Below are positions 36,733 to 49,084 of a stretch of 64,000 nt of DNA, piece after piece. The DNA comes from Bacteroidales bacterium (GTDB lineage Bacteria > Bacteroidota > Bacteroidia > Bacteroidales > UBA3824), in NCBI GenBank assembly GCA_017412115.1, contig JAFPYR010000098.1, positions 37,171 through 101,170 of the forward strand, written 5' to 3'. The first letter of the stretch is position 1. The number at the start of each line of letters is the position of its first letter. A model generated the notes under the pieces. The model had not been told where the DNA came from, did no database searches, and worked only from the letters and a program-made list of their open reading frames with translations. Both the position numbers and the translations under genes were made by a program.

Positions 36733-38005
36733 TGATTAGTTTTAACTTCAGCGTTCTTTTAACAAGCATTCTCACCAAAAAGAATTGTAAAAACTGTGTT
36801 GCGACATATAATACGCATGTTAACAATAAAGAATAACGTGTTAACCACAAAGACACCAATAAATGCAAAACAGACGAACCGAAGGTTATATACATTATTT
36901 TTTTTGTTTCTTGAAAAAAGAACAAATACGGTGAATATATTAAATAGAAGCACACAAATAAGCCGTAAAAAGAAAGAATATAAAAATACTTAACAGCTGC
37001 CACATATTTTTCAAAAAATAAAGGAATAACAAAAACAACGCACAAAGAAATAAAAATAGCAGCACCAATAAATATCCGATATAAAAAATTTCTTTGCTGT
37101 TTTAACACTGATAATTTTGTGCTTTCACTAATCGTTTTATCACCAAGAGTTTTATATATATCTACGCTAAACGACTGATTGAATCCAAAGCCAACCATCG
37201 TTATTGCACTCGTAAAGGTATAAGCAAAATTGAATAAGCCCACATCCGTTAAATCATAAAATTGCTTAATAATATAAGTATCACCTCCTTGTCTGATAAA
37301 TATAGCACCCAAATGTGGTATCAATGGAATTCCCCACAAAAGCATTTTTTTAAAATACTTGATATCAATACGACTCAGAAAATTTTGTTTTAACAACAAA
37401 ACAATGCCAATCAATCCCACTAATACAGTACAAAAACCTTGAGCATATACTCTGCCTACCCATCCAAAATCTAATAATTGTACAAGTATAACCGTCAATA
37501 TAAAATTAAGTACAGCATTTCCACAACTCAAAATTCCATACCAAAATACATCTGATTTAACACGAAGATAATCTAAATAAAGATTGAAATAGACATTAAA
37601 AAAAGATATTAAAATTCCTATAAACAAAATTTCTAACGGCAAATCAATCCGTACAGAGATAAAACTACCACCAATACCAAGCACTATGCACAACATTGCA
37701 GAAACAAGCAATGAAACCACAATAATACCTGAAAAAACTTGACGGACACCAAACACACCGTCTTTAAAAAAAGCAACAGAAAGATACCCTTCCGTTGACA
37801 TCGCTTGAAAATATCCGACAAGCATTATTACTGTACCAAATACACTCAATAATCCATAATCATACGGAGAAATAAAACGAGCGATTATAAGCAACAGCAA
37901 AAAAAAGAATCCCTTGTTGACAAAAGAAAATAGCGAAAATAAAAGACCATTTCTTAAAGTCGGATTATGAAATGCCGATAATATCTTGCTTAGTAATGAA
38001 TTCAT
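36725..38005 (-). CDS. wzx: Oligosaccharide flippase (Wzx, MOP superfamily)
   Basis: 426 aa with ~12 TM helices. The N-terminus (LRNGLLFSLFSFVNKGFFFLLLLIIARFISPYDYG) is typical of flippases. Confidence 0.75.
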   Translation of the reverse strand: MNSLLSKILSAFHNPTLRNGLLFSLFSFVNKGFFFLLLLIIARFISPYDYGLLSVFGTVIMLVGYFQAMSTEGYLSVAFFKDGVFGVRQVFSGIIVVSLLVSAMLCIVLGIGGSFISVRIDLPLEILFIGILISFFNVYFNLYLDYLRVKSDVFWYGILSCGNAVLNFILTVILVQLLDFGWVGRVYAQGFCTVLVGLIGIVLLLKQNFLSRIDIKYFKKMLLWGIPLIPHLGAIFIRQGGDTYIIKQFYDLTDVGLFNFAYTFTSAITMVGFGFNQSFSVDIYKTLGDKTISESTKLSVLKQQRNFLYRIFIGAAIFISLCVVFVIPLFFEKYVAAVKYFYILSFYGLFVCFYLIYSPYLFFFQETKKIMYITFGSSVLHLLVSLWLTRYSLLLTCVLYVATQFLQFFLVRMLVKRTLKLKLING

Positions 38006-38009
38006 TATA

Positions 38010-39056
38010 TTATTTCAAATGCCTTACCAATTCCTGAGCTCTTTGATATTCCTGAGGATTACCTATATCAATCCACGTACCATTAAGCGGATAACGGATA
38101 ACACTTTTGTTTTCCGAAATCAGTTTTTCTATCAAATCTGTAGCATTAAAAAATTGATTATCAGGAATTTTATTCAACGCTCGACGTTTTATGAGATAAA
38201 TTCCTGCATTAGCATAATAATTATATTGAGGTTTTTCTAATAATCCTTTTATATTACGTCCGTCCAAATCCAAGATTCCGTATGGAATCGAAATATTGTA
38301 AGGTACAGCGGCAACAGACATCTCGGCATCATACTGTTGAAAATGCAAATAAAAATCTTCATAATCAATATTGGTAAACAAGTCACTATTCATTACCAAA
38401 ATTGTATCGTTATAAAAAGACTCTACAAACTTAACACTTCCAATCGTTCCAAGAAATTTTGGCTCACGAAACGTACGAATTTTCACACCGTTACGTAATT
38501 CTTGATAATGCTCTTCTATTTGCTCATGAAGATAATTTACCGTTACACTGATATTCTTAACCCCGTATGAAATCAAACGATCTATATTATGATCAATAAT
38601 ACACTTATCTCCAACTTTGAGCAAAGGTTTTGGCGTTTTTTCAGTCAAAGGACGAAGACGTTCCCCTTTACCACCTGCCATAAGAACAGCATCAAGAGGA
38701 AGTCTTGTTTTATATTTATATAAATCGATAATATCTACAATGTGCATTTTTTCATCAAGCACAGGAACGAGTTTCATTTTCAATTCCTTTTGCTGCTTAA
38801 TTTTTTTCACATCATCAATATCGCTTAATGACAGATAATTAAAATTTCGGTGCATTATCTTTTCCGCTCTGTCAGCTACAGAAACACCAGAAATCAACGC
38901 CCGTCTAGAATCTCCATCAGTAAGAGTTCCAACCATACGATTTTCATCATCAACAACAAAAAGAACCAACGGCTCTGATGGAAAATTGTTAATCTGCGAC
39001 AAAGCCTCCAACAATGTCTTATCCTTACTAATTATATGATTATTACCGTCCAACAT
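38010..39056 (-). CDS. CBS-domain nucleotidyltransferase (PtmE-like sugar-1-phosphate nucleotidyltransferase)
   Basis: N-terminal CBS pair (VVDDENRMVGTLTDGDSRR ... VPVLDEKMHIVDII), followed by the NTP_transferase motif LMAGGKGERLRPLTEKTPKPLL. Confidence 0.8.
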   Translation of the reverse strand: MLDGNNHIISKDKTLLEALSQINNFPSEPLVLFVVDDENRMVGTLTDGDSRRALISGVSVADRAEKIMHRNFNYLSLSDIDDVKKIKQQKELKMKLVPVLDEKMHIVDIIDLYKYKTRLPLDAVLMAGGKGERLRPLTEKTPKPLLKVGDKCIIDHNIDRLISYGVKNISVTVNYLHEQIEEHYQELRNGVKIRTFREPKFLGTIGSVKFVESFYNDTILVMNSDLFTNIDYEDFYLHFQQYDAEMSVAAVPYNISIPYGILDLDGRNIKGLLEKPQYNYYANAGIYLIKRRALNKIPDNQFFNATDLIEKLISENKSVIRYPLNGTWIDIGNPQEYQRAQELVRHLK

Positions 39057-39057
39057 T

Positions 39058-39753
39058 TTAAACCATTTTTTCTTGAATCAACAACTCAGCATATTTCCAA
39101 TCAAGCATAGTATCCAAGTCAACAGAATGAATTTCGCTCATCTCGAAAAAATGTACTTTTTTAAAATCATTAATATGTAAAGCTTTCAAAGACTCAATAT
39201 TAATGACATACACGGCTCCGTTGTATTCATAACACTTTGGAGCCTCTTGACGGCGAGTAATTTTTCCATTGCCTTTTGAAATCACTAAGTTGCCTTCCCC
39301 ATCTTCTTCATAAATATCATAATACGGATTTGAAGCCGCTGATTTAACTGATACAACCATATCACAATCCAAATCAAATTTGTCGATACATCCTATAACA
39401 TCTTCTTTTGTTCTAAAAGGAGATGTTGGTTGCAACAATACTACATTATCATAACGAATACCTTGCTGTTCAAAAAAATTAACAGCATGAAGTATTACTT
39501 CATAACTCCCAGCCGTATCGGATGCCAAATAATCAGGACGTTTAAAAAGTACTTTAAGACCGTATTCTTCCGCTGTTTTGATAATTGTATCGTCATCTGT
39601 TGAAAGGCATATATCCGTATCTTCAACAAATTGGCGAGCAATATCTATCGAATAGTAAATCAACGGTTTACCCGCTAATGGTTTTATATTTTTATGAGGG
39701 ATACCCTTGCTACCTCCTCTGGCGGTTATTAAAAACAAAGATTTCATTGCCAT
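39058..39753 (-). CDS. neuA: Acylneuraminate (nonulosonate) cytidylyltransferase, NeuA/LegF-like
   Basis: ITARGGSKGIPHKNIKPLAGKPLIYYSI ... LLQPTSPFR. Confidence 0.88.
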   Translation of the reverse strand: MAMKSLFLITARGGSKGIPHKNIKPLAGKPLIYYSIDIARQFVEDTDICLSTDDDTIIKTAEEYGLKVLFKRPDYLASDTAGSYEVILHAVNFFEQQGIRYDNVVLLQPTSPFRTKEDVIGCIDKFDLDCDMVVSVKSAASNPYYDIYEEDGEGNLVISKGNGKITRRQEAPKCYEYNGAVYVINIESLKALHINDFKKVHFFEMSEIHSVDLDTMLDWKYAELLIQEKMV

Positions 39754-40748
39754 TATAATTCTATAGGTTCGTCAATCTGATAATCTCTCTTAGCAGGTTT
39801 ATCGGCCACCAAATCCCAAAATTTAGCCGGAATTCCATCAGAACTTCGAAGTAAAGCTATATTCTCGAAACTAATAATTTCACCTTTTTTTATAGGTGTT
39901 TTTGCTATCAAACGTTTCAAAACAACTTCTGCATTTTTTTGTTCTGAAACATTGGGTCGTTTAATTCCATCACCAAAAGCATTTTCAATATTTCTAATTG
40001 AAGTTACCATTTGTTTCAACTCATGCGGCTCTAATGATGCCAAATGATCAGGTCCTTCCATCGTCCGATCAAGAGTAAAATGTTTTTCTATTATTTCCGC
40101 TCCCATTGCAACGGCAGCAATAGGAACTTCAATACCCATTGTATGGTCAGAATAGCCCACTTGACATTTAAAAGCGGCTTTCAACGTTTGCATAGCACGT
40201 AAATTTACCTCACCGTAAGGACACGGATAATTTGTTGTACAATGAAGTAATGCCACTTCTTTTGCACCGCTTTCCAACAATGTATTGTAGGCTTTTTCCA
40301 CGTCAGAAAGCATTGACATGCCGGTAGAAAGAATCACTTTTTTACGTTTACTGCCAATCTGTCGCAAATATGGAATATTAGTAACCTCACCGGAACCTAT
40401 CTTCAAAAAAGGCAAATTCAATGAACATAAATAATCAAGGCTTTCTTTTTCGTCTGGAGTTGACAAAAATTGAATACCGATTTTATCGCAATATGCCTTA
40501 ATTTTATCAAAATCATAATAACTCAATTCTAATGCTTTGAGCATTTCGTATTGACTTTGCGCTGTGCCTGTATTTTCTTTTTGATATGCTGCTTTTGCAG
40601 CACTTCGTGTTACAATATTTTCAGTTTTCCAAGTTTGAAACTTCACAGCATCAACACCAGCTTCTTTGGCTGCATCACAAAGTTTTAATGCCAAATCAAG
40701 TCTACCATTGTGATTGACACCTGCTTCAGCTATAATATATACACTCAT
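39753..40748 (-). CDS. neuB: N-acetylneuraminate/legionaminate synthase, NeuB/LegI family
   Basis: IIAEAGVNHNGRLDLALKLCDAAKEAGVDAVKFQTW ... STPDE ... KIGSGE ... STGMS ... LHCTTNYP ... YSDHT, plus a C-terminal SAF/AFP-like domain. Confidence 0.92.
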   Translation of the reverse strand: MSVYIIAEAGVNHNGRLDLALKLCDAAKEAGVDAVKFQTWKTENIVTRSAAKAAYQKENTGTAQSQYEMLKALELSYYDFDKIKAYCDKIGIQFLSTPDEKESLDYLCSLNLPFLKIGSGEVTNIPYLRQIGSKRKKVILSTGMSMLSDVEKAYNTLLESGAKEVALLHCTTNYPCPYGEVNLRAMQTLKAAFKCQVGYSDHTMGIEVPIAAVAMGAEIIEKHFTLDRTMEGPDHLASLEPHELKQMVTSIRNIENAFGDGIKRPNVSEQKNAEVVLKRLIAKTPIKKGEIISFENIALLRSSDGIPAKFWDLVADKPAKRDYQIDEPIEL

Positions 40749-40751
40749 TCT

Positions 40752-41780
40752 TTAATATTTGTATTTTAACAGAAAATGTTTATAATGCTCAGCCTTTGAC
40801 GGATTATTCAGCTCCCATTCCAAACAAATCTGTTCGTATAAGTTTGAGTTAAAAATCAATTTTCCCAAACAAAACTGACGAGTACTATTTGAAAAACGAC
40901 TTTTAAAACAAAATAGGGTGTCATCTTCTGAAGATGTAGTACCACCGCCCAGATGAAATGTTTTAACGCCGCGGCGTTTCAATTCAAGAGCAGCATGCCA
41001 AAGCATAAAATTATTGGGGGATAATTTCAACGCACTGACATCACTACCAGCCAAATGATAATGTCCGTATTCGCCTTCATACATAAAAATAGCCGCAGAA
41101 ACGACTTTACCTTCGTATAGAACCACTCCCAAAAAACTATCAGGAAGTGACTTTTTAAATTGTTGATAATAAGACTGCTTAAAATAATAAAAATCGGAAG
41201 CGTCTAATTTATCCATCGTAGCATTATAAAGCCGGATAAAATCATCTAAATAATTATAATCATTATCTACGACAAATTTAAGACCGCTTTTTTCACCCTT
41301 CTTTATGACATTACGATTTTTAGTGTGAATTTCCTTCATCCAAATTTCGTTCTCCTCCAAAGCAAGGTTTATAGCAACAGTTTTTCGGTCTTCAACAACC
41401 CGTCCTATATTGAATTGTTTATAATTGTCTAACAAAGGGTGAAACCTTACAAAACCAGCAACATAATTGTTATTTTTTAAGGTCTCTGACATCAAGAGCA
41501 AAGCCTCTGACTTAAAATCGTCATCAGCATTGTTCCATATCGGTCCGCCATAACCATACGCTGTCTCAAAATCCAAAAGAGTATGTTCTTGATATTCAAA
41601 AGTACGGCTAAGAAACGGGAATAACATTTTACTATCACCTTTTTCTACTATACAACAGACCGCTTTTTCTGTTTCGGTTTCATACAATCTGAGGTATTCT
41701 TCTTTAAAATAAATATCCCGATTTTTAGGCGAAAAATTATTTAGTATATGATTCCAACTTTCAGAAATATGTATATTCAT
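40752..41780 (-). CDS. FemAB-fold / Acetyltransf_6-like GNAT protein
   Basis: 342 aa. The duplicated-GNAT layout and the C-terminal FHLGGGTTSSEDDTLFCFKSRFS resemble FemAB-family / BioF2-like acyltransferases. Assignment by eye only. Confidence 0.5.
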   Translation of the reverse strand: MNIHISESWNHILNNFSPKNRDIYFKEEYLRLYETETEKAVCCIVEKGDSKMLFPFLSRTFEYQEHTLLDFETAYGYGGPIWNNADDDFKSEALLLMSETLKNNNYVAGFVRFHPLLDNYKQFNIGRVVEDRKTVAINLALEENEIWMKEIHTKNRNVIKKGEKSGLKFVVDNDYNYLDDFIRLYNATMDKLDASDFYYFKQSYYQQFKKSLPDSFLGVVLYEGKVVSAAIFMYEGEYGHYHLAGSDVSALKLSPNNFMLWHAALELKRRGVKTFHLGGGTTSSEDDTLFCFKSRFSNSTRQFCLGKLIFNSNLYEQICLEWELNNPSKAEHYKHFLLKYKY

Positions 41781-41781
41781 A

Positions 41782-42819
41782 TTAAATACTATCTTCTAAA
41801 ACATTAAGAATACGTTTCATATCACTTTCTGTATATCGTTGGTCAATTATGATAGATAATTCATGAACCGATAAATCTATACCACGTTTTAATTCCAACT
41901 TGAACCTATCTTCGACCGGCCAATGTACAGGTAAAAAAATATTGTTGGCAAACATTGCCTTACGAACTCTATCACGATTATCTATTCTAATTGGAACAAA
42001 TAAAGGAACTGCTGTTTTCTGTAAAGGAATAATAGGAACAATTCCTAACTTTTTTAAACCATCAACTATTACTTCCGCATTATGCCTTCTTAACTTAGCA
42101 TAAACTTGCCAATCCATGTCGGAAAGAATTTCTTTTGACAATGTTGTCATATCAGTCTGATAGTCATCATCGATTTTAACCTCTCCTTTATGAAACAAAT
42201 CCAAATAAATTTCATCACAAAACAACCGATGCGCTCTTAACGACTTCAAATAAGATGCCGCAATCTTATATTGTGCGAAATCATTTATTTTGTTTGGTTG
42301 GCATAACATTCCTTTTTTAGAAATCACCCAAGCACCATCTGAAACAGGAAAAGCCTTACGAAAACTGGAAAAAACAAAATCAGCATCATTATCATCTGTC
42401 ATAGCATACGGTGCTTGAACATTATCTAATATAATAATCATATCCCGATTAATAGCCCGAAGATGATTAATTATAACATTATAATCTATCAAACCAAAAT
42501 AATTAATCAGAATTACTGCCTTAGAAGTATCATAACATGACTCTAATGCATTAAAATCGGGACTAAGTTGTTCATCAAGAGCATAAAATTCTATTTTCAA
42601 CTGATTTTTATAAGCCATCTGATATACAGATTCGCACAAATAATCAGGGAAAAGTATAGTAGTTATACCCAAATGCGCTTTAACAAAAGTGAGAATATTA
42701 TAAAGTGCGGAACGCCCTGAAGAAAAAGTAACAACATTTGTAGGCAAATGATGTATATTTTCATAATGTTGTTTTACTTCTATTTCAAACTCGCCACCTA
42801 TTATTTTTGTTTCAGCCAT
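41782..42819 (-). CDS. DegT-like PLP-dependent enzyme (second aminotransferase-like gene of module A)
   Basis: SSGRSALYNIL ... LFPDYLCESV ... ILDNVQA ... FSSFRKAFPVSDGAWV (putative PLP-Lys). Divergent from the LegC-like gene. Confidence 0.5.
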   Translation of the reverse strand: MAETKIIGGEFEIEVKQHYENIHHLPTNVVTFSSGRSALYNILTFVKAHLGITTILFPDYLCESVYQMAYKNQLKIEFYALDEQLSPDFNALESCYDTSKAVILINYFGLIDYNVIINHLRAINRDMIIILDNVQAPYAMTDDNDADFVFSSFRKAFPVSDGAWVISKKGMLCQPNKINDFAQYKIAASYLKSLRAHRLFCDEIYLDLFHKGEVKIDDDYQTDMTTLSKEILSDMDWQVYAKLRRHNAEVIVDGLKKLGIVPIIPLQKTAVPLFVPIRIDNRDRVRKAMFANNIFLPVHWPVEDRFKLELKRGIDLSVHELSIIIDQRYTESDMKRILNVLEDSI

Positions 42820-43916
42820 TCTTTAATTTTTGCAACAATTAAATTAGAAGTATGACCGTTGCCATAATATGTATCTATTATTTTGGACTGAGATAACATC
42901 TTTTGAAAAGCCAAAGCGATTGAAGTATTATCCCGATCACACTGAATAACATTCTTACAAAGATGTCTACCTTTTTGTCTTTCTCCAATATTTACAACAG
43001 GTATCCCTAAAAAAGGTGCTTCAACAATGCCGCTGGATGAATTTCCGATTATACCCGCAGATTGTTGCATAAAACTCAAATAACGACGTTGACCTAATGA
43101 GGAGAACAAATGAAACTTATCAGTATCTGACTTAACGGCTTCTTCCCAAAACTCATTTATCTGCATTCCGCCAAAATCAGCATTTGCCTTACTTATTACA
43201 AATTGAACATTTTCAGTTTTTTTCATCACATCAAAAAGATGATGAACCATTTTCAAATTATCATCAAGACTTAATTTCGTTTCAGAATGAAGAGTTACCA
43301 AGCACCAACGTTTACTTTCATCAAGTCCGATATTACTTGCAATTTCATTTCTAGTCATTAAGTCATATCGTAGAAAACTTTCAAGTCCAGGTTCTCCCGC
43401 AATAAAAATATTAGTGTCAGAATTAAGCATCCTTTTAAGATTTTCAGCAGAGCTTTCAACGCCTGGAAAATGAAGAGTAGACATCATAGATACAGCATTG
43501 CGCACTTCATTATCTATTGCACCTTCAGTAACATCACCACCAGAAATATGCGCTACTGGAATACCCATCACCAAAGCGGCACTTACTATGGGAAGTAATT
43601 CATATCTATCGCCTAATACAACAACAACATCTGACATCAATTTGAAATATACTTTTGCAAATCCCTCGGAACATTTTCCCATAGAACATACAATATCAGA
43701 TTTATTATCTGACCTCAACTGCATATCCACTTTTGCAGCAATAGGATACCCATCTTCTTCGATGAACCGATATGTCAACCCCTGCTCAAAAGAAAGATGA
43801 GCACCAGTTACTACTAATTGAAGTTCTAATTCAGGATCGTGATAAACAGAATCTATCACCCATCGTAATAATCCATACTCAGAACGAGCAGCTGTAACAA
43901 TACAAACTTTTTTCAT
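42801..43916 (-). CDS. neuC: UDP-N-acetylglucosamine 2-epimerase (hydrolysing), NeuC/LegG-like
   Basis: KVCIVTAARSEYGLLRWVI ... VVLGDRYELL ... HISGGDVTEGAIDN ... HFPG ... GNSSSGIVEAP. Confidence 0.88.
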   Translation of the reverse strand: MKKVCIVTAARSEYGLLRWVIDSVYHDPELELQLVVTGAHLSFEQGLTYRFIEEDGYPIAAKVDMQLRSDNKSDIVCSMGKCSEGFAKVYFKLMSDVVVVLGDRYELLPIVSAALVMGIPVAHISGGDVTEGAIDNEVRNAVSMMSTLHFPGVESSAENLKRMLNSDTNIFIAGEPGLESFLRYDLMTRNEIASNIGLDESKRWCLVTLHSETKLSLDDNLKMVHHLFDVMKKTENVQFVISKANADFGGMQINEFWEEAVKSDTDKFHLFSSLGQRRYLSFMQQSAGIIGNSSSGIVEAPFLGIPVVNIGERQKGRHLCKNVIQCDRDNTSIALAFQKMLSQSKIIDTYYGNGHTSNLIVAKIKEWLKQK

Positions 43917-45535
43917 TAATCAATATTATCAAAAGCCGTTTTCATCCATTCAAGACGATTTATAAGCCACATTTTCAAATATGAAACCTCATTTTGATAA
44001 CTACCCAACACATCACGATTAACATACGGCAAAAATTCATTCATTGTATGCCACCTATTTTCATTTTCTTCTACAGAATATTTTAGATAACTAACATAAG
44101 AATTTATTTTTTTCAAAATATCATTTTTTCTGCTATAAAAATAATAAAATCTTTCTTTGGCTTTATTACGAAAAATAGGATCCTCAAAAAGACGCATCAA
44201 CCATTTATTATTATATATTTGAAACAAAAAGCCATCAGTAGGATACAATGGTGTTGCATTATTATTACCTAATGACTGATCAAAATCCCACAAAGGTCCC
44301 ATTTTAAGTATACCATCGCGCTTATAGTTCATATAACAACTTGTGTACATACTCATTGCATCACCGTTCTTACATATTTCATTTATAAGAAACCAATCTA
44401 CAAACGATTCCAAATCCATATACGATTACCACCCATTTTCAGGATTTGTAAAATTGTCAGAAAAAAGTACTTCTTCTGCCTTCAAAACATACTGCTTAAT
44501 AAAATTATAATTATCGTCACCTACAACAACATCAGGATCTTTTATATTAATAGGCTGTGTAAGCATATTAGTTTCAAAATAAGGAGCATTCTCACTTATA
44601 GCTCTTTGATCAACCTCCAACAAAAAACCATCCTTACCAACATTCACACGATTTTCAGCTATTTTTAATTTATCTCCAAGCATATACGTTCCATGATATT
44701 TCCCATTTAACATCAATTCTACAAAATGGAAATGAGGTGTGTAATCAAGATTACTTATCATCCCCATATAATATGCGATAATATTACGAACCATGGCTTT
44801 ATCAAAATAATTAGCAATCAAAACCCATGATTTATCTTTAGGTTCATTCAGCAAAGAAATTTTTTGATCAAATTTTAAGGTATAAGATTTTTTAGGAGAT
44901 GATGAATATGAAGAATTTCCTCTACATTTTATTTGCACTTTTGTATTTAATTTTTCTTCAGAACTTTGAGTTAATTCATTTTCCATCAGTTGGAAATTAG
45001 CATTAACATATTCCTCTTTAGATGTTATATCAACCCTTTCATCGGTTTCAATCCATAAAATTGGTAAACCAGTAAATGTGCGCACATAAATGACATATTT
45101 TTTTTCTATACCATGCTCATCAAAGACCGACAAAATAACAGGAGTATTAAAATTAATATAATTAGAATTTTGATTTTCCGTATCGTAAACAACACTATTT
45201 GAATCCCAAACTATTTTTTCTCCTTTATATTCAATACATGGTATTAAATTTTTATTATCTACTATATAAGGAATACGAAATTCAATTATACTATCACCTA
45301 TTATAGTACCATACACGTCTTCAATCAGAACATCAGGATTTTCGTCTGACTTGAACGAAGCATTCAATACCTTCGGACCTAATATTTTAGTATCTTCAAT
45401 TATGTAAATAGATTCAGACTTTTTACAAGAAGATAAAATAAAACACAAAAAAAGTGTATAAAATATAATAATTCTTTTTTTATACATAGAAACTAAAATT
45501 ATGCTAAGCAGGAGTAAAGGAGAAGATTGAGTCAT
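43916..45535 (-). pseudogene. CotH-like kinase-fold lipoprotein gene interrupted by a single in-frame TAA
   Basis: ORFs 44426-45535 and 43916-44419 are in the same frame, separated only by TAA (44426-44428) plus two codons: ...NPENGW * SY MDLESFVDWFLINE.... CotH hallmarks span both halves (KKSYTLKF ... WVLIANYFDKAMVRN ... FVELMLNGKYHGTYML // FVDWFLINEICKNGD ... GPLWDFDQSLG). A lipoprotein signal (FILSSC) appears if the start is at 45487. Confidence 0.75.
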
Positions 45536-45541
45536 AAAAAC

Positions 45542-45979
45542 TTAATTCTCTGCAAACAATTCTTTGATTTCCTCAGATACCAAAGTACTTTTTCGTATTC
45601 CGTTTGCAATTATTTTCAGACCATATTCGTCAATAAAACCTGATAGAAGCTTTACTTTGCCGGATTTCAATAATTTGGCAAAATCTATATCATCAATTTC
45701 AATCACATTGTTGCAATCGATATATGTCTGAGGTTTTTTGAACTCATTTTTATTATCCGCCAAAAACACAGGATAAGTGCTTGTATCGAAACCGTTCAAT
45801 TCAGCAAGCCTTAGCGCAGTATTTATTTGCGACGAACACGTGGAAAAAAATAGTAACTTGTTGTTGCGCTTAATGCATACGTGAATATGTTCTTTTATAC
45901 CAATCGGACAATTTGCATAAAAGAAATAGAGTGCACCTTCCGTAATGCTCTGAGACAAAAGTGTTTCGGGCAGTTCCAT
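45542..45979 (-). CDS. Hypothetical 145-aa protein; candidate toxin partner of the Panacea-domain protein
   Basis: Start overlaps the upstream stop by 1 nt (TGATG). No signal peptide or TM helix. No family recognised (MELPETLLSQSITEGALYFFYANCPIGIKEHIHVCIKRNN...). Confidence 0.55.
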   Translation of the reverse strand: MELPETLLSQSITEGALYFFYANCPIGIKEHIHVCIKRNNKLLFFSTCSSQINTALRLAELNGFDTSTYPVFLADNKNEFKKPQTYIDCNNVIEIDDIDFAKLLKSGKVKLLSGFIDEYGLKIIANGIRKSTLVSEEIKELFAEN

Positions 45980-46557
45980 CAGCGGTTGTATTGGTGATAA
46001 AGTTCTTTTGAAAGGTTTACTATTTCAGGATTTTCATTCTGAAACAATCCTGTCGGGTCGTCATTGCAACCGTCAAAAAAACGGTCAATGTCAATTTTGT
46101 ACGAGTTTTTGAGGTTTGTGTCTCGCAACATTGGCTCGTAAAATGTCCATTCAGGAAACTTGTGCGAAATTTCTGACAAATCCTGACCTGATAAATTTTT
46201 GCACCTTTCTATAACCCTGTCCAATACTTCTGTATCTGTTTGCGAAAACTTTTTTGTGTCGGGTTCGCTGATTGCACTATATTTATGGTTTTCAGTAGGA
46301 CGGATATACATTTCGAAATAATTGTTATCCGTCTTCAACCGTGTCTTTTTTCCTTCCAAAAGATTTTTGGCATCGGTGGGCACTACACCTTTGGGCATAG
46401 CATAATAAACGTCGCCGCTTATAGTGCGTCCGTACCGCCGCAGATGGCAACGGTCAGAAAGCCAAAGAATTTTATAGGCTTTTATATTGTCTATTGTCCT
46501 ATCAGGCTGTTTAGAAGCGATATACGTCAAAGCCTGAATTATTTTTGTAGTGTCCAT
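45979..46557 (-). CDS. Panacea (DUF4065) / SocA-like antitoxin-domain protein
   Basis: KAYKILWLSDRCHLRRYGRTISGDVYYAMPKGVVP and LSGQDLSEISHKFPEW match the DUF4065 pattern (K-l-KLLY ... G-pi-g ... a-GPV ... LS--sH----W). Confidence 0.7.
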   Translation of the reverse strand: MDTTKIIQALTYIASKQPDRTIDNIKAYKILWLSDRCHLRRYGRTISGDVYYAMPKGVVPTDAKNLLEGKKTRLKTDNNYFEMYIRPTENHKYSAISEPDTKKFSQTDTEVLDRVIERCKNLSGQDLSEISHKFPEWTFYEPMLRDTNLKNSYKIDIDRFFDGCNDDPTGLFQNENPEIVNLSKELYHQYNR

Positions 46558-46573
46558 CGCAAATTATTTTTTG

Positions 46574-46581
46574 CAAAAATA
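46574..46581 (-). promoter_or_regulatory. Bacteroidetes-type -7 box (TATTTTTG) for the Panacea pair
   Basis: A perfect TAnnTTTG on the minus strand, 16 nt upstream of the ATG at 46557, inside the 52-bp gap after legC. Confidence 0.45.
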
Positions 46582-46609
46582 GGAAAATAATACTCAACTT
46601 ATTGAGCAA

Positions 46610-47764
46610 TTAACTTTTTTTAACCCTTACGCTACTCGGTATGTTAACCACTCTGTCGGCGAAGTAAATCGTATTTTCCAAACCGTCGTTTTGACAATGC
46701 TCAAACATTGGCAGACGATTCATCAGTTCCCAAATTGGACGAGTCATTACGCCATTGTCGTTGCTGAATTGCAGAAAATCTTGCTGCATATCCTTGTCTT
46801 TCAAGATGATTGCATTGAGCCAATAATTACTGCGACAATCATCGGGTTCGCTGAAAAACTTGATATCAGGAACATTCTTGAAAAACTCCTTGTATGCCTC
46901 TGCCGTTTGTCGCTTGCTTTCGATGTAAGAGTCGATGTTTTCCAACTGTGCGCAGCCGAGGGCGGCATTGATGTTTGGCATACGGTAATTGTAGCCGATA
47001 TGGTCGTGGCGGAACTCCCAACGGTGCGGAATCTTTGCCTGAGTTGTGATGTGCTTGGCATACGCACCGAGTTTTTCGTCATTGAAAAGCATCATTCCGC
47101 CGCCGCCAGTAGTGATAGTCTTGTTGCCATTGAAACTCAACGCTCCAATCTTGCCGAATGTGCCTGTGTGTTTGCCCTTGTAAAGACTTCCAATGCTCTC
47201 GGCGGCATCTTCCACGAGTTCGATATGGTATTCGTTGCAGACCTCAACCAATTCGTCCAAATGGACGGGATGACCAAAAGTATGCATCGGGACACACGCT
47301 TTTACGCGACGATGTGTATTCTTGTTAAAACATTGATTGTCTTTGATTTCGGCGTTCTTTTCGAGCCAATTTCTTACTGCCGCCGGCGAAAGTCCCATCG
47401 TGTCCCTGTCAACATCAATGAAGACGGGAACAGCACCGATGTAACTCAAAGCGTTGCAGGTTGCAATAAAAGTCAGGGCTTGTGTCAACACTTCGTCGCC
47501 GCGCTCCACGCCCGCCAACATCAGCGAAATATGCAGTGCATTAGTGCCGCTCACGCATACAACCGCCCTCTTGCAGCCTGTAAACTTTGCAATGTCTTCT
47601 TCAAATCTGTCAACGAACTTGCCGACACTCGACACAAAAGTAGTGTCGATACATTCGTTGAGATATTTTTTCTCGTTACCCGCAAACACAGGCACCGACA
47701 GCGGGATGAAGTCGCCGCCGCCATACCATTCACGGATAAAGTCAGTTATTTTTTTGAATTCCAT
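46610..47764 (-). CDS. legC: LegC-family aminotransferase (UDP-4-amino-4,6-dideoxy-HexNAc transaminase)
   Basis: FIPLSVPVFAGNEKKYLNECIDTTFVSSVGKFVDRFEEDIAKFTG ... ALTFIATCNA ... ALSFNGNKTITTGGGGM. Confidence 0.85.
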   Translation of the reverse strand: MEFKKITDFIREWYGGGDFIPLSVPVFAGNEKKYLNECIDTTFVSSVGKFVDRFEEDIAKFTGCKRAVVCVSGTNALHISLMLAGVERGDEVLTQALTFIATCNALSYIGAVPVFIDVDRDTMGLSPAAVRNWLEKNAEIKDNQCFNKNTHRRVKACVPMHTFGHPVHLDELVEVCNEYHIELVEDAAESIGSLYKGKHTGTFGKIGALSFNGNKTITTGGGGMMLFNDEKLGAYAKHITTQAKIPHRWEFRHDHIGYNYRMPNINAALGCAQLENIDSYIESKRQTAEAYKEFFKNVPDIKFFSEPDDCRSNYWLNAIILKDKDMQQDFLQFSNDNGVMTRPIWELMNRLPMFEHCQNDGLENTIYFADRVVNIPSSVRVKKS

Positions 47765-47766
47765 TT

Positions 47767-48975
47767 TTACATTTTTTGGTCGAGGTTCTTACCCTTTTCT
47801 TCGTGTTGGAAATTGGGAATGAACCCTTTTATTGCGTCAACAACCTGACCTTTGGTAAAATCGGGTTTGCTGAAAATGTTTTCTAATTCTGTGAAGAAAC
47901 TGTTGATTTCGTTCATTGGACGGCGTGTGGTCTGTTCCACGACACCAAGTGCCGAAAACCTCTGCATATTGATTTTTTCGCCCGGCACAAAAAACTCCTC
48001 GTAAGCCTTTTCGCCAGTGGTGTCGCTTTTGAAATATACCACAGGGTATTTGTCGGAATCGTATGACATTTGGTCTGCATATTCCTTGGCAGCGTTATCA
48101 TTCTGACATTCAACCTTTTGAAATCCTTGTGCCTTTACGAAGTCATCGCAAACCGTTGAGAAAGTTAGCATTTGGTCTTCGCCGAGTTTTGGGAAGAAAA
48201 CCTCGCCGCCTTTGCCGAGAATACAAGCCAACATACATATCTGACCGCTTTCTTCGGGCGAAACGAAATATCTTTTTACGTCGTTTGGCGCAGCGAGAGG
48301 CTGTTTTTTCTGCAAACGGTGAATCCAACCGTCAGGCAGCGAACCATTGGAGAAAGCAACGTTGGCAAATCTTGCCGTAGTTACCTTGAAATGAACGTTG
48401 TATGCCATCACCAAATCTTCCATAATCCTTTTGCTTGCGCCCATAATGTTGACGGGGTTTGCAGCCTTGTCGGTGGAAACACAGAAAAAATGTTTCGGCG
48501 GATACACACAAAGCAAATCCATCAGTTTCTTCGCCTTGATGTCGTTGTTTTCGATAAGAGCCTGAACGGAGTATTTGTCTTTTTCGCTTCTGACGTGTTT
48601 GTGCGCCGAAAAATTGGCAACAATGTCAAAACCCTTCTCCTCTCTGAAAATCCTCTCGAAAATCGGGTCGGCAAAATTCAGAGTGTAACACCTAAATTCG
48701 TCGGGACAAAACAGCCCCAGTGTAGAACGCACATCCCTGACAAGTTCCGCCAAGCCGTTTTCGTTCAAATCGACAACGACCATACTTTGTGGTTCAAACC
48801 TCAGTACCGCCTTTATAAAAGACGATCCGATAGAACCTGCACCACCGATAACGCAGACTTTTTTGTCTTTGATTTCTCGGCTCAAAGCATCTTTATTAGC
48901 CTCAATATCAGGCAAAAACATACTTTCAGGACGGAAAGTAACGCTATCAGAAATGAATTTGTTAAGGTTGAACAT
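47767..48975 (-). CDS. NDP-sugar 4,6-dehydratase (CapD/PglF/LegB-like, soluble form)
   Basis: Rossmann motif VCVIGGAGSIGSSF ... FSAHKHVRSE ... STDKAANPVNIMGASKR. Start set at the first ATG (MFNLNKF); the tracked ORF starts at a TTG 21 nt upstream. Confidence 0.8.
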   Translation of the reverse strand: MFNLNKFISDSVTFRPESMFLPDIEANKDALSREIKDKKVCVIGGAGSIGSSFIKAVLRFEPQSMVVVDLNENGLAELVRDVRSTLGLFCPDEFRCYTLNFADPIFERIFREEKGFDIVANFSAHKHVRSEKDKYSVQALIENNDIKAKKLMDLLCVYPPKHFFCVSTDKAANPVNIMGASKRIMEDLVMAYNVHFKVTTARFANVAFSNGSLPDGWIHRLQKKQPLAAPNDVKRYFVSPEESGQICMLACILGKGGEVFFPKLGEDQMLTFSTVCDDFVKAQGFQKVECQNDNAAKEYADQMSYDSDKYPVVYFKSDTTGEKAYEEFFVPGEKINMQRFSALGVVEQTTRRPMNEINSFFTELENIFSKPDFTKGQVVDAIKGFIPNFQHEEKGKNLDQKM

Positions 48976-49084
48976 AAAATCACAATCAATTTGCAATAAA
49001 GCAAACTATTATAAAATAATGGATTAATAAAACTATTTTATGATAAAAATATTATTAACTAATGCTTTTACTTTCGTATCCACA

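Follow-up and report, generated by a model that had tools for sequence, protein, structure and literature searches.

The stretch of DNA analyzed here, referred to below as the window, is 64,000 nucleotides (nt) long and comes from a Bacteroidales bacterium (UBA3824; assembly GCA_017412115.1, contig JAFPYR010000098.1, positions 37,171 to 101,170 of the forward strand). Within a glycan operon of the nonulosonic-acid type, it carries two genes on the minus strand that we call panA (45979..46557) and panT (45542..45979). The former encodes a protein of 192 amino acids (aa) that, by its domain content, is a standalone Panacea-domain (DUF4065/SocA-like) antitoxin; the latter encodes a 145-aa protein with a predicted and divergent MazF/PemK fold, presumed to be an endoribonuclease toxin. 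The two reading frames are coupled by a 1-nt overlap, the TGA stop of panA and the ATG of panT sharing nucleotide 45979 (cgcTGATGgaa), as had already been noted in an earlier reading of the letters alone (hereafter the sequence-only reading). Our main finding is that these genes belong to a conserved two-gene module, probably a toxin-antitoxin (TA) cassette, that was inserted into the glycan operon.

The two genes are inherited as one unit

A gene of the PF13274 family lies directly upstream of panT, on the same strand, in every context that we retrieved. This holds for five distinct metagenomic contexts of close relatives, for 17 of 17 species-representative genomes (Prevotella, Muribaculaceae, Paludibacteraceae, Sangeribacter and other metagenome-assembled genomes (MAGs) of Bacteroidales), and for four remote PanT members with about 19-25% identity, one of them from Kiritimatiellia. 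The gap between the genes is -8 to +10 nt in 25 of 26 loci, and usually 0-10 nt; in the 26th (L032), the start could not be resolved. Chance adjacency of two open reading frames (ORFs) can be rejected, since the genes are adjacent or overlapping in these 25 loci. Homologues of the 145-aa protein do co-occur with DUF4065 genes elsewhere, a question that the sequence-only reading had raised.

The pairing holds across several phyla and extends to one Thermotogae virus. In the temperate Marinitoga camini virus 1 (L042, KP836355, 28057-29155), UF08_38 is a PanA (E=1e-31 against the PanA hidden Markov model (HMM) of this analysis) and UF08_39 a member of the MazF-fold PanT family (E=2e-27); their genes overlap by 8 nt, and both products are annotated as hypothetical. 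The pairwise-identity matrices of PanA and PanT are strongly correlated (r=0.93, a value reached by none of 2000 Mantel permutations), a co-divergence that shows co-inheritance only. Comparison of the window with the locus L045, 94% identical at the DNA level, gave ratios of non-synonymous to synonymous substitution rates (dN/dS) of 0.10 for panA and 0.15 for panT, similar to those of the neighbouring genes; both genes are under purifying selection. Taken at the level of gene order and sequence, panA and panT are a conserved, co-inherited and translationally coupled module.

The genes that flank this module vary between contexts. Of the remote members, one (L036) neighbours genes for an integrase and a tape-measure protein, two (L039, L040) lie in islands of type I restriction-modification genes, and a phage cement protein gene is also among the neighbours; such surroundings are typical of mobile and defence DNA. 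Other, unrelated settings include an outer-membrane protein gene and an AhpC gene. Searches by tblastn found no PanT relatives in a plasmid collection and one remote match only in a phage collection, and a scan of the IMG/VR viral contigs returned no PanT relatives.

At one locus (L038:1400-3441), there are two tandem Panacea genes: after the first (172 aa) comes a 63-aa ORF, and after the second (202 aa) a member of the 145-aa family. This arrangement may represent two stacked PanA-PanT (PanAT) modules with different toxins.

The first protein is a Panacea-domain protein

The 192-aa protein scores 87.8 bits against PF13274 (SocA_Panacea), for which the gathering cut-off is 25.7 (E=1.2e-24), and it matches phrog_1281 as well (E=3e-19). 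Its Panacea domain spans residues 29-137 and covers profile positions 3-112 of 113; no domain stands N-terminal to it, and a C-terminal extension of 55 aa follows. The HMM search bears out the family assignment that the sequence-only reading had made from a residue pattern. A phmmer search with PanA found no solved Panacea relative among PDB sequences.

The second protein belongs to a large family of hypothetical proteins

No significant match to the 145-aa protein was obtained in Pfam, NCBIfam, PADLOC or PHROGs, in agreement with the sequence-only reading, which could name no toxin family for it. The protein is far from isolated, though: 54 close homologues with 44-99% identity and lengths of 140-156 aa were found in metagenome contigs of Bacteroidales type, and a profile search of 1.84 billion representatives (E<=0.001) delineated a family of 269 clusters at 50% identity, nearly all full-length members of which are 140-157 aa long. 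Ten family representatives that we looked up were all metagenomic and all labelled 'hypothetical protein'. Where a source is shown, members come nearly always from metagenomes or MAGs, the Marinitoga camini virus 1 protein being the exception.

Within this family, a faint trace of a known toxin could be discerned. PF02452 (PemK_toxin) is the only Pfam family matched by more than two of 105 PanT relatives; its six matches are all sub-threshold (13.8-17.1 bits against a cut-off of 23.1; best E=0.0011), and their alignments are colinear and long to near-full-length. In the highest-scoring one, residues 32-122 of the relative P0324 align to PF02452 positions 17-105 of 109 with 17.1 bits. These matches lend weak, independent sequence support to a possible MazF/PemK link. 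By the Pfam definition of PF02452, PanT stands outside that family, its predicted MazF/PemK fold notwithstanding.

Structure prediction points to a MazF/PemK fold

The AlphaFold2 model of the window PanT is of high confidence (predicted local distance difference test (pLDDT) 91.6, predicted template modeling score (pTM) 0.86) and shows a compact alpha/beta globule in which no long hydrophobic segment is present; the sequence-only reading had seen neither a signal peptide nor a transmembrane helix. Its best Foldseek match in the PDB is E. coli MazF (5co7; probability 1.00, template modeling score (TM-score) by target length (TMt) 0.63, root mean square deviation 3.8 A), whereas the TM-scores of the remaining PDB matches stay below 0.3 when normalized by query length and do not exceed 0.35 when normalized by target length. 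Among viral models (BFVD), the best match is a phage 'PemK-like protein' (E=1e-5, TM 0.57/0.68).

As a replicate, we modeled P0324, which is about 25% identical to the window PanT. This model (pLDDT 95.5) has its secondary-structure elements in the same order, and its top 40 PDB matches are all MazF-type toxins: 39 of the MazF/MoxT/YdcE type and the type III toxin CptN (E down to 7e-5, probability 0.99-1.00, TMt 0.52-0.73). They include MazF-mt1, -mt3, -mt6 and -mt9 of M. tuberculosis, together with MazF proteins of S. aureus, B. subtilis, B. anthracis, E. coli, D. radiodurans and K. pneumoniae. PanT is thus confidently predicted to have a very divergent MazF/PemK fold, that is, the SH3-like barrel of CcdB/MazF, with two helical insertions. 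Its elements run beta1, beta2, beta3, helix 52-61, beta4, beta5, beta6, helix 97-105, beta7 and a C-terminal helix, which we take to be the MazF order plus the helices at 52-61 and 97-105.

Conservation within the family suggests where an active site could lie. A single residue, His31 at the head of strand beta2, is invariant (or near-invariant) in the 105 relatives, the loop after strand beta3 is a conserved (T/S)49-S50-Q51, and T68, C89-N90, G127 and S131 are each conserved in more than 90% of members. In MazF, the catalytic residues are an Arg (R29 in E. coli, R25 in B. subtilis) and a Thr (T52 and T48, respectively). Going by the register of secondary-structure elements, with no superposition, His31 would occupy the place of the MazF catalytic Arg; by motif resemblance, (T/S)49-S50-Q51 would correspond to the catalytic loop T52-T53-Q54. 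This residue mapping is one that we infer, since hhalign, including a forced global run of the PanT family against a MazF-type profile, which returned no alignment, gave no usable alignment of the two families.

The pair was inserted into a glycan operon

In the window, a Polysacc_synt_2 dehydratase gene is followed by a DegT/DnrJ-type aminotransferase gene (46610-47764), and panA begins 52 bp further on. Downstream of panT, at a distance of 6 nt, begins a gene for a CotH-family lipoprotein (43916..45535, minus strand; PF08757 in both halves), a neighbour outside the TA module that occupies the DegT-NeuC slot together with the pair. Then come genes for a NeuC-like epimerase (Epimerase_2), an unknown protein, a GNAT/FemAB-like protein, NeuB, a cytidylyltransferase and a nucleotidyltransferase. 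The sequence-only reading, which placed the pair between the dehydratase/DegT genes and the neu genes, was right about these flanks and overlooked the CotH gene that shares the slot.

The comparison set for this locus consisted of 80 metagenomic loci with DegT orthologues of 65-96% identity. In many of them, the order dehydratase, DegT, NeuC, (unknown), GNAT, NeuB is kept, and DegT abuts NeuC (L085, L086, L095, L100, L047). The pair is present in one locus only (L045), a decayed panA remnant in one other (L043), and 78 of the 80 loci have neither. Because a single orthologous locus carries the pair and one more only a remnant, the pair is, judged by gene order, an insertion between the aminotransferase and neuC-like genes of this nonulosonic-acid-type operon, and the proposal of an inserted two-gene module made from the letters alone held up. 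The pair is not a conserved component of nonulosonic-acid (Leg/Pse/Neu-type) loci. It is a compact bicistron with a patchy, horizontally mobile distribution, as is a type II TA module.

The remnant locus is informative in its own right. In L043:6162-8016, where DegT is 96% identical to that of the window, a gene for a BNR-repeat lipoprotein follows DegT, and then a duplicate of the DegT 3' end and of the intergenic region; panA ends after about residue 147, and neither panT nor CotH stands before NeuC. From its gene content, L043 has in this slot a degenerate form of the cassette, which retained part of the antitoxin gene and lost the toxin gene; what its PanA lacks is the C-terminal tail (residues 138-192). 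Neither a metagenome scan for close DegT relatives nor a genome scan yielded a locus with the pair that is more than 94% identical to the window.

The content in guanine and cytosine (GC) changes in steps along the operon: 42-50% for the dehydratase and DegT genes, 36-39% for the pair, 27-31% for CotH and 31-37% for the Neu-type genes. Given these steps and the comparative gene orders, we regard the locus as a mosaic in which the slot that separates DegT from NeuC is variable. On the scale of the window, the GC blocks (46600-49000 compared with 38000-46600) suggest that the operon was assembled from blocks of different origin.

Within the slot, the CotH ORF is broken into parts of 369 aa and 167 aa by one in-frame TAA (44426-44428). 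L045 has CAA (Gln) at this position and one intact ORF of about 570 aa; the split in the window looks like a recent pseudogenization or a strain polymorphism.

The close Bacteroidales panAT subfamily lies inside polysaccharide loci or at their edge in about 6 of 14 independent contexts (L001/L002, L008/L009, L019, L021, L030 and window/L045), its neighbours there being genes for glycosyltransferases, NAD-dependent epimerase/dehydratases, UDP-glucose dehydrogenase and DegT. Judged informally, without statistics, the recurrence exceeds what the genome share of such genes would predict. It lends circumstantial support to the idea, put forward in the sequence-only reading, that the pair may stabilize the glycan locus. 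A literature search on TA modules in Bacteroides capsule loci brought up nothing specific.

The module probably brings its own promoter

The sequence-only reading had pointed to a Bacteroidetes -7 box in the 52-bp gap before panA. The box is there (TATTTTTG, 46574..46581, minus strand), 16 nt from the ATG. Its significance could not be drawn from the window, an argument that we rejected since TAnnTTTG is not enriched there (110 found versus 101 expected). Support came instead from its recurrence: in 19 of 25 related loci, a TAnnTTTG box precedes the panA ATG by 15-80 nt, compared with a background of 4% for random segments and 12% for AT-rich segments of the same size. Among the loci devoid of it are the two that are certainly non-Bacteroidota, namely Kiritimatiellia L039 and the Thermotogae virus L042; the others are L029, L033, L038 and L040. 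Because the box recurs upstream of panA in this way, we consider it a candidate promoter carried by the pair itself; the module very probably brings its own Bacteroidetes-type promoter.

No terminator-like site was found on the strand of the pair, either between the pair and DegT or between the pair and CotH. With no such site on its flanks, transcription of the operon may read through into the pair, and the panA promoter may in turn read into the downstream genes.

An inverted repeat, TATTTTT-GCA-AAAAATA (46565..46581, minus strand), overlaps the -7 box and is a weak candidate for an operator. Of 17 panA promoters, 4 have a perfect inverted repeat of 6 bp or more that overlaps the box, versus 2.2% of other TAnnTTTG boxes (Mann-Whitney p=0.024). 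The repeat of the window is low-complexity A/T; the further ones are ACTTTGCA-AC-TGCAAAGT (L024), AACTTTGC-AGTC-GCAAAGTT (L028) and ACCTTTG-TC-CAAAGGT (L030). All this amounts to a weak hint that an inverted repeat over the -7 box might serve as an operator.

Relation to known systems

PanA and PanT were defined by Kurata et al. (2022, PNAS), who described 88 toxin clusters (PMC8832971). Two validated PanTs, those of Pseudomonas moraviensis (T6) and Bifidobacterium ruminantium, are without a CDD hit; HHpred likens them to MazF/PemK, and they inhibit translation. T5 and T8 are likewise MazF-like clusters, of which the Chryseobacterium bovis protein (T5) was toxic and the Flavobacterium xanthum protein (T8) was not (PMC8832971). 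In the same study, HHpred recognized the MazF-fold PanT clusters at 99.4-99.7% probability, and the validated MazF-fold PanATs are of type II, forming a complex in which PanA acts by direct binding (PMC8832971). According to Ernits et al. (2023), MazF/PemK is among the commonest folds of the TA network, and a standalone Panacea protein can neutralize toxins directly (PMC10440598).

The pair in the window resembles the T5, T6 and T8 PanATs in having a standalone Panacea antitoxin first, an abutting or overlapping toxin gene, no CDD or Pfam hit and a MazF-like fold. Unlike these HHpred-recognized clusters, its PanT family was missed by HMMER and by a limited hhalign test, the link coming from structure prediction only. 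The family is also about 30 residues longer than MazF, with its two helical insertions and an apparent His for the catalytic Arg. Our attempt to match it to the T clusters through the cluster accessions of Dataset S1 established no correspondence, because the members that we looked up are all metagenomic and lack RefSeq WP_ accessions.

With MazEF and PemIK (Kid-Kis), the pair shares the predicted toxin fold and an antitoxin-first bicistron with overlapping or abutting genes; its T/S-S-Q loop resembles T52-T53-Q54 of MazF in motif. It differs from them in that the antitoxin is a Panacea protein and not of the DNA-binding AbrB/MazE type, that the PF02452 threshold is not reached, and that the catalytic Arg appears not to be conserved. 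With SocAB of Caulobacter crescentus, the founding DUF4065/SocA member, it has the antitoxin domain family PF13274 in common. SocA is a ClpXP adaptor: it has SocB, which as a toxin acts by blocking the replication clamp, degraded, a logic of type VI. SocB is cluster T10 of Kurata et al. (PMC8832971), and the window PanT, unlike the pair's antitoxin, has no relationship to its SocAB counterpart.

As PanA with cryptic MazF-fold toxins has already been published and validated (PMC8832971), the pair represents no new kind of system: the PanT family was previously unannotated, and the pairing itself is known. The suggestion in the sequence-only reading of a toxin from an undescribed family must accordingly be given up, in view of the MazF/PemK fold obtained with AlphaFold and Foldseek, the sub-threshold PF02452 matches of the relatives and this precedent.

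Proposed mechanism and alternatives

We think it probable that the pair is a chromosomal type II PanA-PanT TA cassette, whose MazF-fold endoribonuclease toxin arrests translation unless bound by PanA. Free PanT would be a sequence-specific endoribonuclease that stops translation, with His31 and Ser49/Ser50 as candidate chemistry. PanA would neutralize it by direct binding, through the Panacea core, the 55-aa C-terminal tail or both. The cassette would be transcribed from its own promoter as well as by read-through of the operon, and would behave as a selfish, mobile addiction or abortive-infection module rather than as a component of glycan synthesis.

Several observations weigh against this interpretation. 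Toxicity, neutralization and RNase activity of the pair are at present predicted properties. The window PanT has no PF02452 match even at E<=10, profile searches of PDB sequences with narrow and wide family alignments found nothing relevant, and hhalign of the PanT family against a narrow profile of the E. coli MazF type gave a non-significant probability of 3.7%. The canonical catalytic Arg appears to be a His, according to a mapping drawn from motif resemblance and the register of secondary-structure elements. Autoregulation of the operon is hard to explain, as this PanA is devoid of a DNA-binding domain. Neither protein matches a defence family of PADLOC-DB v2 at E<=1. Finally, at least one MazF-like PanT, the T8 protein of Flavobacterium xanthum, was not toxic in E. 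coli (PMC8832971).

It is also possible, if on balance unlikely, that the pair is primarily an anti-phage abortive-infection system, in which PanA is a sensor that releases or activates the MazF-fold effector upon infection; such a role is compatible with the TA mechanism. The capsule loci of Bacteroidales govern phage susceptibility, and remote members of the family reside in type I restriction-modification islands, in a temperate virus, or near genes for an integrase and a tape-measure protein. Moreover, a sensor function of the Panacea domain is proposed by Ernits et al. (2023), who also tie TA modules to defence systems (PMC10440598). However, no PADLOC match exists for either protein, and no member of the close Bacteroidales subfamily turned up in the IMG/VR viral contigs or in the phage and plasmid collections.

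Quite improbable in our view is that PanT, while having the MazF fold, does not arrest growth and is an altered or inactive derivative with a regulatory or nucleic-acid-binding function, PanA being a partner and not an antidote. The non-toxic T8 protein (PMC8832971), the sub-threshold similarity to PF02452, and the MazF Arg, which appears not to be conserved, His31 being the sole invariant residue, would all fit such a derivative. They have to be set against a strict pairing with PanA, usually within 0-10 nt and across phyla, against a patchy and mobile distribution, and against the decayed L043, which lost the partner gene and retained part of the antitoxin gene. In addition, H31, T/S49-S50-Q51 and C89-N90 would lie, going by their place in the chain, where the topology of MazF puts its active site and its RNA-binding site.

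A CcdB-like PanT that poisons DNA gyrase rather than cutting RNA is very unlikely. CcdB and MazF have a common barrel fold. CcdB also figures in the HHpred lists for MazF-like PanTs (Dataset S1 of Kurata et al.; PMC8832971), yet the significant Foldseek matches are all MazF-type RNases plus CptN, no CcdB chain is present among the 50 matches listed, and the sub-threshold Pfam matches are to PemK_toxin. As for the pair being a dedicated component of the glycan pathway, sugar-modifying or regulatory, which would agree with its co-directional position in an operon with no terminators and with relatives beside polysaccharide genes (L001, L008, L019, L021, L030), the comparative data effectively refute it and leave it barely conceivable, since 78 of the 80 orthologous DegT loci do without the pair, which also occurs in outer-membrane protein, AhpC, restriction-modification, prophage and virus contexts, and since no fold or domain of a sugar-modifying enzyme is present in either protein.

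Beyond the TA cassette that we favour, a bolder picture can be drawn, which we consider rather unlikely as a whole: PanT would represent a distinct, unannotated clade of MazF-fold PanTs with His for Arg, and the Bacteroidales cassette would lodge preferentially in surface-glycan loci, which are exchanged fast and matter to phages, protecting them as an addiction or abortive-infection module and supplying the glycan genes downstream with an internal promoter.

Implications

The analysis gives a name and a testable mechanism to a family of 269 clusters of hypothetical proteins, most of which come from uncultured gut and rumen Bacteroidales. It also illustrates that structure prediction can assign a classical toxin fold to a PanA partner in which no domain is recognizable. 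At the level of the locus, a probable TA cassette and its decayed counterpart occupy a variable slot of a capsule or nonulosonic-acid operon, which is relevant to the shuffling and maintenance of such glycan loci, and the recurrence of the cassette in the polysaccharide loci of Bacteroidales is a feature that may merit attention.

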